NCBI GenBank assembly: GCA_041640075.1
Contig: JBEQAY010000026.1
Location: 1 to 15,525 of the forward strand
Length of the DNA: 15,525 nucleotides
DNA from: Candidatus Nanohaloarchaea archaeon
GTDB lineage: Archaea; Nanohalarchaeota; Nanosalinia; Nanosalinales; Nanosalinaceae
Direction of reading: 5' to 3'
Part shown: positions 5,359 through 10,609 of the stretch, piece by piece
Numbering within the stretch: the stretch's first letter is position 1
Layout of the letters: every line of letters begins with the position of its first letter
Made by a program: the position numbers and the translations under genes
Notes under the pieces: generated by a model
Seen by the model: only the letters and a program-made list of their open reading frames with translations
What the model was told of the DNA's origin: nothing
Database searches by the model: none

Positions 5359-5685
5359 ATGCCTGAAAACCAGAGAAGAGCTCCAGCAAGGCCGAAAAAT
5401 ATTGAAGAAATCGATCCAAAAGATGATATCCGTGTAAGAGTTATCGGGACAGTACTTTCAGTTGAAGACGACTCGATCTCACTCGACGACGGAACCGGAA
5501 CAGTAGAGATATTTCTTGAAGAAGAGAAGATGGAGGATCTTGAAGAGAACCAGCGCATCAGAGTCCTTGGACGCGTACTTCCGACACCGGACAGTTTCGA
5601 GATCCAGGGCGAGATAGTGCAGGATTTCTCCGATGTAGACCCGGAGCTCTACAGCAGGGTTAAAAAAGTTGTATCCACTACTTGA
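5359..5685 (+). CDS. Replication protein A small subunit (RPA14/Rpa3-like single OB fold)
   Basis: RRAPA...RVRVIGTV...LDDGTG...RVLGRV...EIVQDFSDVD matches the recalled pattern of Thermococcales RPA14; 108 aa. Confidence 0.75.
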   Translation: MPENQRRAPARPKNIEEIDPKDDIRVRVIGTVLSVEDDSISLDDGTGTVEIFLEEEKMEDLEENQRIRVLGRVLPTPDSFEIQGEIVQDFSDVDPELYSRVKKVVSTT

Positions 5686-5700
5686 TAACAAAGGTGAATC

Positions 5701-6456
5701 GTGTTGTTCAAAGCTGAACTAGAAGAAGTCGGACTACTCAAGGATTCCATGAAAACCATTTCAGACCTAATTTCAGAAGGACTTTTCCAGTTGAAAGACG
5801 ATGGAATCCATCTCATCGCGGCAGATCCAGCGATGGTCGGACTTGTCGACTTCAAACTTGAAGAAGAAGTTTTCGAGAACTACGAACTTGACGAGGAAAC
5901 CAAGGTAGGACTCAACCTGGAAAACTTTTACTCAATCCTCAGAAGAGCGAACAGCGACGACACGATCACACTAGAACTGGACGAAGATAACTCCCAGTTC
6001 AAGATAATAATGGAAGGCATGAGCACCAGAAACTTCTCACTGCCAATCCTCAACCTTTCAGAGGACGACATCCCAAGCACAGACCAGCTCGACTTCTCAG
6101 TAGAGGCAGAACTCGAGACTTCCGTACTTGAAGGAGCAATAAAGGATGCAATGGTCGTATCCGACTCAGTTACGATTTCAGCTGACTCTGAAAACATCAA
6201 TATAATCTCAGAGGGAGATCAATCGAATGTCAACTTCCAGATCTCAGGAGACTCCGACGGAGTCATCGAACTCGAGGGAGACGAAGCCAAGTCCATGTTC
6301 AGCCTTGACTACCTGAACAAGATGATCGGGGCAAAAAGTCTGTCCGACACAGTAGCAGTAAAGCTTGGAGAAGACTTCCCGATGAGACTGGAATTCATAG
6401 TACCAGATAAAGCCGATCTAAGCTTTGTACTGGCACCTCGAATCGAAGAGGATTAA
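5701..6456 (+). CDS. pcn: DNA polymerase sliding clamp PCNA
   Basis: FKAE, ADPAMVGLVD, FSLDYL, DFPMRL and LAPRIEED motifs. SD AGGTGA at 5692-5697 favours TTG 5704 (MFKAE) as the real start. Confidence 0.97.
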   Translation: MLFKAELEEVGLLKDSMKTISDLISEGLFQLKDDGIHLIAADPAMVGLVDFKLEEEVFENYELDEETKVGLNLENFYSILRRANSDDTITLELDEDNSQFKIIMEGMSTRNFSLPILNLSEDDIPSTDQLDFSVEAELETSVLEGAIKDAMVVSDSVTISADSENINIISEGDQSNVNFQISGDSDGVIELEGDEAKSMFSLDYLNKMIGAKSLSDTVAVKLGEDFPMRLEFIVPDKADLSFVLAPRIEED

Positions 6457-6474: not shown

Positions 6475-7236
6475 TTGTCCGCAGATTCTTCACCTTTTAT
6501 CTCTATCAACTATGAAGGAGAGGAATTTCCAGACGCCCATGAACATAGCCAGATGGGGTATGACCCGGACAGAGTATTTCTTTCAGAGGTTCGGAAGAAT
6601 AACAGAATGCAAGAAGGCCTCAGTATAGAGGCAGATGGCCTTCAGGAATTTTTCTCACAGATAGGCGATGTGGAACTTACTTTCCGCTATCAGAATGGAA
6701 GAGCCACGCGGAAAAGGCTTGAAGCGGAAGAGGAAGATGAGGAAATAAACGAGTTCTTGACTGCTCCAGCCTACAGCTTTGAATCATGTGAGGCTGAACT
6801 CGATCCTAACGAAGAGTGGATGGAATGGCTGGATTCAGTCCATGGACCTGTCTCAGAGTACGGAATAGAACAGATACAGCTTGAGACAGCAGGTAGTCCA
6901 TACCATGACATTGAAAGCCTGGAAGAAGGACTTCAGAAGAAAGACCTGACAGTGGTTCCTGATATACAGGGTGTTGCCGGTATAACTTACAGCTGGAGGG
7001 ATGAAACCGCTGAGATTGAGTTCTACAGCGACACATACCTGCTCGAGGATATGCCTCCGATGCGAGGTCTTATGGATCTGCACAGAGATCACCAGCAGAG
7101 AACCGTCAGGTACGGAGTGGATCACGAGGATATATTCAATCTTCAGGAAGAGCTTGAGGAAAACCTGGAGGAAGTTGAAATCACGCAGCTTCCCCAAAGA
7201 ATTATGCCTCCTGAGATAGAAAAACATATTCAATGA
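6475..7236 (+). CDS. Hypothetical acidic protein
   Basis: 253-aa open frame with host-like acidic composition. GGAGG at 6461-6465 precedes a TTG start, and the stop overlaps the Nudix start (ATGA). No family recognised. Confidence 0.75.
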   Translation: MSADSSPFISINYEGEEFPDAHEHSQMGYDPDRVFLSEVRKNNRMQEGLSIEADGLQEFFSQIGDVELTFRYQNGRATRKRLEAEEEDEEINEFLTAPAYSFESCEAELDPNEEWMEWLDSVHGPVSEYGIEQIQLETAGSPYHDIESLEEGLQKKDLTVVPDIQGVAGITYSWRDETAEIEFYSDTYLLEDMPPMRGLMDLHRDHQQRTVRYGVDHEDIFNLQEELEENLEEVEITQLPQRIMPPEIEKHIQ

Positions 7237-8381: not shown

Positions 8382-8475
8382 AGGAAAACTTCAGCGATTA
8401 CAAGATTTTTATACTGTGACGACTCAGGAGCAAACACGGGTTACCCTTTTACAGTTTATTTCAGCTAAATCAAAC

Positions 8476-9843
8476 ATGGGGGAAATAGGGGAGAAGCCTC
8501 AGGACTGGAAGATCAGACAGTACTACGAACAGGACGAGATAGTAGAGAAATTCCTGGAGCTGGGGCAGTACAGGGAAGTAGTGCCTACTTATGAACACGG
8601 GTACGGCAGACGCCCCGACGCCATAAACTTTCCCGGAGACTTCGAACAGTTCGTGGAAGACGGTGCAGTAGCTTTCCATGCTTCCGTTGAACAGTGGAAA
8701 AACCCTTTACTCATAGATTCTGTATCAGACCTTGACGATCTAAGAGAAAACTGGGATCTCGTACTTGACATCGACTGTGACGAAAGCTTTGAGCTTGCAA
8801 AGGAGACAGCAAAACTTGTAATCGAAGAACTACACCAGCACGGGATCGAAAACGTCTCTGTAAAGTTCTCAGGCAACAGAGGGTTCCACATCGGGGTCAG
8901 AGCTGAGGCGTTCCCGGAAAAAGTTGATAACAAGGAAATTACCTTGCTCTACCCCAACCTGGCGCGTGGGATTGTGGATTACCTGCGAGACCAGCTTGAA
9001 GAGCAGATGACGGAGAAAGCCATCGAATATGGTTACTCAGAGGAAATTCAAACTGATGGAGGTCAGGACCCTTACCAGGTTTCAGACATAGAGAACGACT
9101 GGGGTCAACGCCACCTTTTCAGGATGCCCTACAGCCTTCACGACGGTAGCTGGCTCGTATCACTTCCTATAAACGAGGAAGAAATAGAGGATTTCGAGAA
9201 GAGAGACGCGAAGATGGAGAGTATTGACTTCGAAACTGATTTCCTGGATGAATACGAGGAGAATGAAGCTACAAACCTCGTTGTACAGGCCATGGACTTC
9301 CTTGAACAGCGTCGTGAGGAAAGAAAAGAAGAAAGAACCACTCAGGACGGTGAGTTCGAGACTCCTGACGAGGCGATAGCCGAGAAACATTTCCCTCCGA
9401 CCATAAAAAATATTTTGGAGGGCCTGGAGGACGGCAGGAAACGTGGACTGTTTATACTCATCAATTTCTATCTGACCGTTGGCTACGAGATGGATGAAAT
9501 CGAGTCGAAGATCTGGGAGTGGAATGAGCGGAACAAGGAGCCTTTACGCGAAGCTTACGTCAAAAGTCAGTTGAGATGGCATAGAAACCGTGAAGAGATT
9601 GTACCACCACCAAACTATGATTCAAACGGATACTACGAGGATATGCAGGTATACGAAGGCGACAACCTTGAGGAACAGGTGAAAAACCCTGTCAGCTACG
9701 CCTTCAGGATGGCAAAGAACAGGAATCCTGAGGAAGACAGTGAAGACGGGGATGGAGAGGATGATCTTGTTTGTCCGTACTGTGGGAAGGAGTACGAGAT
9801 CGAAAGCTACTACAAGAAACACGTGCAGGAGTGTTTCGAATGA
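8476..9843 (+). CDS. priS: Single-chain DNA primase (PriS catalytic domain fused to PriL C-terminal domain) with a C-terminal CCHC zinc finger
   Basis: AEP motifs WDLVLDID, KFSGNRGFHI and RHLFRMPYSLH, followed by PriL-CTD-like FPPTIKNIL..DGRKRGLFILINF...PPN...KNPVSY. Start revised from GTG 8416 to ATG 8476, which leaves room for the divergent promoter. Confidence 0.9.
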   Translation: MGEIGEKPQDWKIRQYYEQDEIVEKFLELGQYREVVPTYEHGYGRRPDAINFPGDFEQFVEDGAVAFHASVEQWKNPLLIDSVSDLDDLRENWDLVLDIDCDESFELAKETAKLVIEELHQHGIENVSVKFSGNRGFHIGVRAEAFPEKVDNKEITLLYPNLARGIVDYLRDQLEEQMTEKAIEYGYSEEIQTDGGQDPYQVSDIENDWGQRHLFRMPYSLHDGSWLVSLPINEEEIEDFEKRDAKMESIDFETDFLDEYEENEATNLVVQAMDFLEQRREERKEERTTQDGEFETPDEAIAEKHFPPTIKNILEGLEDGRKRGLFILINFYLTVGYEMDEIESKIWEWNERNKEPLREAYVKSQLRWHRNREEIVPPPNYDSNGYYEDMQVYEGDNLEEQVKNPVSYAFRMAKNRNPEEDSEDGDGEDDLVCPYCGKEYEIESYYKKHVQECFE

Positions 9844-9886: not shown

Positions 9887-10609
9887 ATGAGTGAAGAAGG
9901 AAACATCCTAACTTTCAGTGAACTCAGGAAAACACAGAAGGAAGAAGACAGAGAGGAAGAACTCACTAATTTAGATGACAAGTTTCTACTAAGAGTTTCA
10001 AACTACTTTGACAAGAAGAAAAAAACTGAAGGAGAGAACTCAAGAGAGTACAGGAACGCCAGAAGAGTCCTGGACAAGATAATCTCACTCAGAGAGGAAA
10101 AAATAGTGAAGGAAGCACGTCTATCTGTCAAAACAGATGAAAGAGGTAAAGAAGTAAATTTACTTCCTGAAGAACAGGAACTTTTCCGCAAACTGAAATC
10201 GGACTTCGAAAAACACAGGTCAAGAGTAGACGAGAAAGTTGACTCAGAATCACTACCTAGTGGAGATAGAGAACCCTCAGAAGAGGTAACACAGGAAGTA
10301 GAAAAACCAGAAACGGATGAAAAACCTGTTGAAGAGGAAAAAAATACTGGAGAAGTAGATAAAGAGAACAGCCCCGAAGTAGAGGAATCTAGCACCGACG
10401 AAGATTCCGGGATTGAAGAAGATTCTGAAAGTGTAGATGAAGCTGAAGAAGGTTACAGCATCGTTAAAACCACTTCTAACGTGCCAGAGTTCATGGGGAC
10501 CGACCTTGAGGCTTACGGGCCGTTTGATGAAGGTGAAAAAGTTGAGATACCGGATGACAACGCAGAAATCCTTGTGAACCGGGGTAACGCAGAGAGGATT
10601 GAAAATTAA
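9887..10609 (+). CDS. GINS complex subunit (Gins51/Gins15 type: A domain, acidic linker, B domain)
   Basis: LTNLDDKF, LREEKIV and NLLPEEQELF in the A domain; VPEFMGTDLEAYGPF...NAEILVNRG in the B domain. It follows the primase as in the conserved archaeal cluster. Confidence 0.9.
   Translation: MSEEGNILTFSELRKTQKEEDREEELTNLDDKFLLRVSNYFDKKKKTEGENSREYRNARRVLDKIISLREEKIVKEARLSVKTDERGKEVNLLPEEQELFRKLKSDFEKHRSRVDEKVDSESLPSGDREPSEEVTQEVEKPETDEKPVEEEKNTGEVDKENSPEVEESSTDEDSGIEEDSESVDEAEEGYSIVKTTSNVPEFMGTDLEAYGPFDEGEKVEIPDDNAEILVNRGNAERIEN

Follow-up and report, generated by a model that had tools for sequence, protein, structure and literature searches.

The role of the primase [4Fe-4S] cluster is described as debated between that of a structural core and that of a redox switch acting via DNA charge transport (PMC10250227), and the locus analyzed here raises the question of whether a cell can prime replication without it. 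The window, i.e., the whole stretch of 15,525 nucleotides that was analyzed, is contig C26 of the nanohaloarchaeal genome G000 (979,576 bases in 58 contigs, 89% complete). It contains a primase gene whose product, according to the initial annotation, has lost all four expected cluster ligands.

Architecture and genomic context

The primase gene (8476..9843, forward strand) starts with ATG and encodes 455 amino acids, and a Pfam scan places PF01896 (residues 100-233) and PF04104 (residues 272-361), both above cut-off, in this one frame. Together with the fold matches obtained for both parts, this bears out the annotated fusion of PriS and PriL, and the open reading frame is confirmed to encode a nanohaloarchaeal PriS-PriL primase of the fused DPANN type. 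The 455-residue form is covered to 98-100% by homologs in most rows, and an in-frame GTG upstream at 8416 would add 20 codons that homologs leave uncovered. The nearest named homolog, from Ca. Nanosalina sp. VS9-1, is 79% identical, and the remaining named matches among those listed are from Nanohaloarchaea, for which, as for DPANN cluster 2/Undinarchaeota, a fused primase is known (PMC3914693, PMC7414124).

Directly 3' of the primase lies gins51 (9887..10609, forward strand; PF22090, E 5e-15), which provides a replisome context, and a priS-gins operon is known from H. volcanii (PMC7776575). A GINS match follows within at most 600 bases downstream of the primase in 31 of the 41 relative loci with room for one. 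Elsewhere in the window, positions 5359-6456 encode a small OB-fold protein with an RPA3-like match under cut-off (PF08661, E 6e-4), and the gene directly downstream of it is one that we take to resemble PCNA. The open reading frames at 631-1524 and 6475-7236 have no Pfam match at E 0.1, the former presumably resembling a PP2C-type phosphatase.

Substitution of the cluster ligands

The PriL-CTD-type helical domain (residues 297-417; 9364..9726, forward strand), assigned from Pfam and the predicted fold, contains no ligand cysteine. The motifs read in the initial annotation, FPPT at 9391-9402 and PPPNY at 9604-9618 followed by YYEDMQVYEGDNLEEQVKNPVSY, are correctly placed, as is its description of the C-terminal domain (CTD) as cysteine free: residues 296-432 are without any cysteine. 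The four cysteines of the primase are C101, beside the catalytic DxD motif, and C433, C436 and C453 in a C-terminal finger.

The ligand sites were mapped onto an ortholog from the same order, L043 (genome G040, family f5), which has four cysteines in the expected motifs and 45% identity to the query. In the BLASTP alignment, which is gap-free over residues 317-415, the ligand cysteines of L043 fall on T309 (9400..9402), Y381 (9616..9618), Y393 (9652..9654) and E399 (9670..9672), all on the forward strand, i.e., on the proposed T/Y/Y/E positions and not elsewhere. Across 121 rows, comprising the query and the best 120 of 1968 homologs, position 309 is Thr in 100 and Ser in 21, and positions 381, 393 and 399 are Tyr, Tyr and Glu throughout, the ligand-free state being common to all 120 homologs listed. 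This fixation argues that the substitutions reflect neither chance nor assembly error. A non-ligand cysteine is present at position 334 in 38 of these 121 close rows.

The primases fetched from other families are also cysteine free (f2, 1/1; f3, 9/9; f4, 5/5 with the whole domain), and the sister families have T/W/Y/T or P/F/I/L at the four ligand sites. A named bearer of the state is primase P0113 of Ca. Nanohalococcus occultus, which, like Ca. Nanohalobium constans, we take to be cultured.

Catalytic site, initiation site and predicted fold

Residues 1-290 (8476..9345, forward strand) comprise the PriS/AEP catalytic domain and a linker helix, as assigned from Pfam, invariant residues and fold. 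The AEP motifs hhhDhD, sxH and hD/E are all present, the catalytic residues being D98 (8767-8769), D100 (8773-8775), H138 (8887-8889) and D204 (9085-9087), on the forward strand. D98, D100, H138, R212 and H213 are invariant in 150 sequences, and D204 aligns with residue 306 of human PriS, which we take to be its third catalytic aspartate. In the predicted model, the catalytic part matches Prim-PolC (6sa0, Z 20.6) and archaeal PriS (1v33, Z 17.7).

Within the CTD, D319-G-R321-K-R323 together with F326 (9430..9453, forward strand) is likely to form the initiating-NTP site, judging by a pattern as in PriX and a spacing as in NEQ395 from N. equitans. R323 is kept in all 52 cysteine-free and all 178 cysteine-bearing rows of the tree alignment described below, N404 and P405 are likewise invariant in the 52 cysteine-free rows, and the DGRKR, PPN, NP and further CTD columns are equally conserved in the two groups.

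The whole primase was modeled with AlphaFold2, which predicts folds irrespective of cofactor, from a 150-row alignment that includes many cysteine-bearing rows (mean pLDDT 92.9). When aligned with VIA-align, the modeled CTD matches yeast PriL-CTD (6di2; Z 7.9, rmsd 4.1, 121 aligned), human PRIM2 (8d0k; Z 7.4) and PriX (5of3_C; Z 7.0, 98 aligned); Z values of 7-8 are middling, derive from the whole-protein model and are consistent with the Pfam hit. The prediction is that the helical fold of PriL-CTD and PriX persists in this domain, and the suggested likeness to the cluster-free PriX extends to both the predicted fold and the D-x-RKR motif. A PDB sequence search with the primase returned only weak PriS matches (best E 0.13), and Foldseek with the whole model returned just catalytic-domain matches among the matches listed.

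From typical residue volumes, T/Y/Y/E would add about 208 cubic angstroms relative to four cysteines. The idea that bulky side chains fill the former cluster cavity is plausible because the second ligand position is Phe, Tyr or Trp in 51 of the 52 cysteine-free sequences.

The only primase detected in the genome

PF04104 has a single match in the 89%-complete genome G000, namely this gene, and neither a fused-primase profile nor one made from 87 canonical PriL open reading frames hits any other G000 gene. A separate priL, which the initial annotation had considered, was found neither in G000 nor, at E<=1e-12, in any of 49 same-family genomes, and profile search gave no second AEP or PriL in G000. 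A single motif scan, too weak to show absence, gave no DnaG. At 89% completeness, the assembly could lack a further primase gene.

Repeated ligand loss among fused primases

The cysteine consensus given for DPANN primases in the initial annotation is correct, and ligand cysteines are not generally absent from DPANN fused primases. Among representatives at 50% clustering (the best 150 of 643, of which 141 were kept and nine fragments or duplicates dropped), 108 have at least four cysteines in the ligand window, 27 have at most one and six have two or three. Seven cysteine-free primases occur among the 79 CTD-holding loci of the named GTDB set (the best 80 of 590), i.e., four from Woesearchaeota, two from Pacearchaeota and one from Nanoarchaeia. 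In the cysteine-free fused primase L049 (G060:C39), the CTD is tandem-duplicated and carries short internal repeats, and the ABCE1 of that genome keeps eight cysteines.

A FastTree phylogeny of 236 rows, from which the ligand regions were excluded and in which many inner branches are weak, requires a minimum of 26 changes between the 52 rows with at most one cysteine and the 178 with at least four. L073, L091, L096, L056 and the nine representative fragments or duplicates were left out of this tree. The apparent truncations of L073, L091 and L096 turned out to arise from the alignment: L073 and L096 are complete and have four cysteines, and L091 has a frame break and keeps its cysteines. A quick IQ-TREE tree of a 49-row subset needs 19 changes, and in it the sister of each of five cysteine-free rows is cysteine bearing, with support of at least 98 under LG+C20. 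The AU test rejects the grouping of the cysteine-free rows in one clade (p-AU 0.001, with comparison rows chosen after the first tree was seen). Change counts give no direction; loss rather than gain is indicated because none of the canonical PriLs of other archaea (40 + 20) is cysteine free in the windows examined, where they have 3-7 cysteines. The trees thus indicate that ligand loss occurred many times independently among fused primases. The replacements are non-random yet lineage specific, the Cys1 site being Thr, Pro, Ser or Ala in 48 of the 52 cysteine-free rows and the Cys2 site aromatic as given above, which argues against a conserved alternative metal site.

Companion losses in ABCE1 and UDG

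The primase is not the only protein of G000 to have lost cluster ligands. Its ribosome-recycling factor ABCE1/Rli1 (G000:C3:54864-56651, i.e., L137:1471-3258; NF009945, 726 bits with a cut-off of 469) is without the Fe-S cysteines and has no PF04068 match. It aligns through the Fe-S domain of the P. abyssi protein (3bk7) with all eight ligand cysteines replaced, and its model (pLDDT 88.8) matches 3bk7 over 583 residues with an rmsd of 2.6, the N-terminal domain included. The ligand cysteines are missing in 34 of the 35 f1 genomes with a match (one cut at the start), G007 keeping five, and in all eight f4 genomes; G040 keeps eight. A query with the first 100 residues gave 120 listed homologs, all of which lack cysteine in their first 85 residues, and P0400 of Ca. 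Nanohalobium constans is a named bearer of this cysteine-free ABCE1. The cluster domain of ABCE1 is reported as crucial in yeast, where most of its eight ligand cysteines are essential, and loss of all eight is arguably the more surprising because this domain counts as crucial in those organisms in which it has been tested (PMC3442406).

Among genomes of Woesearchaeota type, a one-cluster ABCE1 is found in 3 of 4 with a cysteine-free primase and in 6 of 21 with a cysteine-bearing one. The bearers of one-cluster ABCE1s are L202, L208-L211, L214-L216 and L218 of Woesearchaeota type and L315 and L316 of the haloarchaeal class; the first ligand set is gone in some and the second in others. A DPxNRS motif is common to L208, L209, L315, L316 and nanohaloarchaeal ABCE1, by transfer or convergence.

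In family f3, ABCE1 was found in 0 of 10 genomes by protein query (G038, G041, G043, G045, G047, G049, G051, G053, G055 and G056) and in 0 of 4 genomes 91-93% complete by family search; it is possible that this family has truly lost ABCE1, which is otherwise described as conserved in archaea. The family-4-type UDG of G000 (G000:C12:22854-23441) is also without cysteines. In a survey in which 30 of 50 UDG matches were examined, the cysteines are missing from 20 of 20 f1 and 3 of 3 f4 loci and are kept in four f3 genomes and in G040. The differing ligand state of primase, ABCE1 and UDG among families indicates that the Fe-S losses are stepwise and protein specific and do not go back to one event.

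Alternative explanations

The protein might still bind a cluster or a different metal, either with ligands other than cysteine or with the three cysteines of the C-terminal finger folded back onto the domain. This finger, a putative zinc-binding CxxC-x12-H-x3-C motif (9772..9834, forward strand) assigned from its pattern and a PF00096 match under cut-off (E 0.028; 15.3 bits, cut-off 25.2), follows an acidic, low-confidence linker (pLDDT about 51 at residues 421-430). The invariance of Y381, Y393 and E399 in the close rows and the presence of the finger in 116 of these 121 (and in 6 of 150 representatives) would fit such binding; however, the sister families have other residues at the ligand sites, the finger coexists with four intact ligands in L043, and it is missing from f3, in which the open reading frames L041 (cut by the contig end) and L042 are wholly cysteine free. 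The finger is therefore not a substitute ligand set, and retained metal binding is very unlikely. That the CTD is a decaying relic and primers are started by another enzyme is hardly conceivable: the assembly is just 89% complete, which leaves this reading some room, but the DGRKR, PPN and NP columns are as conserved in cysteine-free rows as in the others, the gene adjoins gins51, and G000 has no second AEP or PriL match.

The other alternatives concern the cause of the loss. The initial annotation had pointed to a small genome with limited Fe-S biogenesis, and several observations in relatives are in line with ligand loss following from a reduced or missing supply: in f3, SufBD gives two weak and one strong match in 10 genomes, Dph2 is found in 0 of 4 and ABCE1 in 0 of 10, and 3 of 7 cysteine-free Woesearchaeota, Pacearchaeota and Nanoarchaeia genomes have no SufBD match. 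However, contig C8 of G000 encodes SufB, SufD, SufC, SufU and SufS (SufC and SufU identified from sequence alone), and Fe-S clients are kept, Elp3 with CxxxCxxC, Dph2 with three motif cysteines and XPD with four. SufBD (PF01458) is present in 36 of 36 same-family genomes and has no match in the cysteine-keeping G040 (93% complete), and outside the order it occurs in 4 of 7 cysteine-free vs 12 of 23 cysteine-bearing genomes. Furthermore, the f3 genomes G038 and G041, which have a cysteine-free primase, contain 16 and 14 radical-SAM matches, respectively, and the motifs are intact at the loci examined. The gene content thus largely refutes limited biogenesis as the cause in G000, and as a general explanation it is improbable. 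An Nth/EndoIII-like protein of G000 (G000:C50:774-1499) has three cysteines with altered spacing; the ligand assignments in this protein, Elp3, Dph2 and XPD follow the motifs expected for these protein families. In G038 and G041 (L344-L355), genomes of 0.8-0.9 Mb with no SufBD match, several radical-SAM genes are clustered.

Adaptation to an oxic, hypersaline life, with cluster lability and low iron availability as the pressures, had also been suggested, and finds its best evidence within the order. With protein acidity (acid/base ratio) used in place of habitat, 19 cysteine-free primase rows inside the order have a median of 1.41 vs 0.85 for L043, and the acidic families are cysteine free, while the non-acidic member keeps its ligands in primase, ABCE1 and UDG; this contrast is that of a single branch. 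ABCE1 clusters are moreover a known target of oxidative stress in yeast (PMC3442406). Haloarchaea, represented by 27 genomes from a class whose genes are acidic and GC rich and which is taken to be Halobacteria, speak on both sides: PriL Cys4 is replaced in 8 of 27 (one window ended before Cys4) and ABCE1 has only four cysteines in 2 of 27, but both cysteine sets are kept in the other 25, Cys1-3 are kept in 27 of 27 PriLs, and 0 of 27 PriLs and 0 of 27 ABCE1s are cysteine free. Outside the order, the median acid/base ratio is the same for cysteine-free (0.92, n=33) and cysteine-bearing primases (0.94, n=177), and the radical-SAM-rich G038 and G041 also argue against an oxic or salt adaptation. 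Salt may contribute to ligand loss in this lineage, but the comparisons indicate that it is neither sufficient nor necessary, and as the explanation of the loss it is rather doubtful. In L334-L340 and L343, the haloarchaeal PriL has Met or Trp in place of Cys4 and a His just ahead of that residue, which may form a 3Cys-1His site.

Proposed mechanism and significance

The combination of four lost ligand cysteines and retained priming residues points to a primase that works without a cluster; as the sole primase found in the genome, it very probably primes replication without one. By analogy with NEQ395 and PriX, PriS would form the phosphodiester bonds and the CTD would hold the initiating NTP and the primer 5' end via D319, R321, R323 and F326. 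The cluster would have been a structural core that is now replaced by protein side chains, with a small residue at Cys1, an aromatic residue at Cys2 and a remodelled loop at Cys3 and Cys4. The likely driver would be that reduced DPANN genomes have a relaxed need for a cofactor without catalytic function, and in this family the loss would have reached ABCE1 and UDG step by step, with retention of Fe-S assembly and of the clusters of radical chemistry. The XPD cluster is not known to be a radical catalyst, and as XPD of G000 keeps its four cysteines, there is no clean structural-versus-catalytic rule for loss. Retention of the cysteines in L043, the lone non-acidic member of the order, likewise fits a salt effect and speaks against a relaxed need.

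Taking the proteins together, we lean towards a broader reading in which both the primase and the ABCE1 of this family are without any Fe-S cluster. Three clusters regarded as conserved or essential, and that of UDG, would have given way to protein cores, with Suf kept for radical enzymes and XPD; in living cells, the clusters would then act as structural scaffolds that can be replaced, and not as redox switches, and DPANN would offer dozens of independent natural solutions, one-cluster ABCE1 intermediates included. A natural, repeatedly evolved ligand-free primase together with a cysteine-free ABCE1 and Suf makes the in vivo role of the clusters directly testable, and the many independent losses provide matched pairs with and without ligands for structural and biochemical work.

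Comparison with known systems

The open-access literature, to which the search was confined, gave no report of a natural cysteine-free replicative or fused primase or of a cysteine-free nanohaloarchaeal ABCE1, and natural ligand loss goes unmentioned in the relevant passages of PMC12770985, PMC7776575 and PMC6514570. With respect to whether priming needs the cluster, the in vitro part of the question raised by the initial annotation has been pre-empted. In NEQ395, each of the single substitutions C289A, C364A, C376A and C384A removes the 410-nm band, yet primase activity is undiminished or even raised, and the role of the cluster is called enigmatic by the authors (PMC10250227); the same paper quotes a growth defect in vivo for yeast with two PriL ligands mutated. 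Normal priming in vitro is also reported for a chimera of PriX and PriL that has no Fe-S domain (PMC5700102). These earlier cases of cluster-free priming concern mutants that were engineered, or a third subunit; the in vivo type of evidence, so far missing, comes from a lineage in which the one replicative primase detected appears unable to ligate a cluster.

Like NEQ395, the present primase combines an AEP catalytic domain, a linker helix and a PriL-CTD in one chain with the same catalytic motifs, and R321, R323 and F326 correspond, in a comparison by residue spacing, to the NEQ395 initiation residues R301, R303 and F306, at equal distance from the Cys1 site (PMC10250227). It differs in having T/Y/Y/E in place of the [4Fe-4S] ligands C289, C364, C376 and C384, and in its additional C-terminal CxxC..H...C finger. 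The predicted cluster-free CTD fold is shared with PriX of Sulfolobus solfataricus (5of3), and D319-G-R321-K-R323 resembles D70/72-RKR-74 of that protein (PMC5700102). Unlike PriX, however, it is not a stand-alone third subunit beside a cluster-bearing PriL: the CTD is fused to PriS, would descend from cysteine-bearing fused orthologs and has no other PriL detected beside it. Canonical ABCE1/Rli1 has eight ligand cysteines (3bk7; PMC3442406), whereas the G000 protein has none in an otherwise aligned fold. A parallel in pattern is clusterless MutY/MutYX, another DNA enzyme with repeated independent loss of a [4Fe-4S] cluster, for which bulky fillers have been proposed; its crystal structure reveals helix remodelling rather than simple cavity filling, which counsels caution for the primase model (PMC12631127). 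MutY is a repair glycosylase, whereas the enzyme described here belongs to replication.
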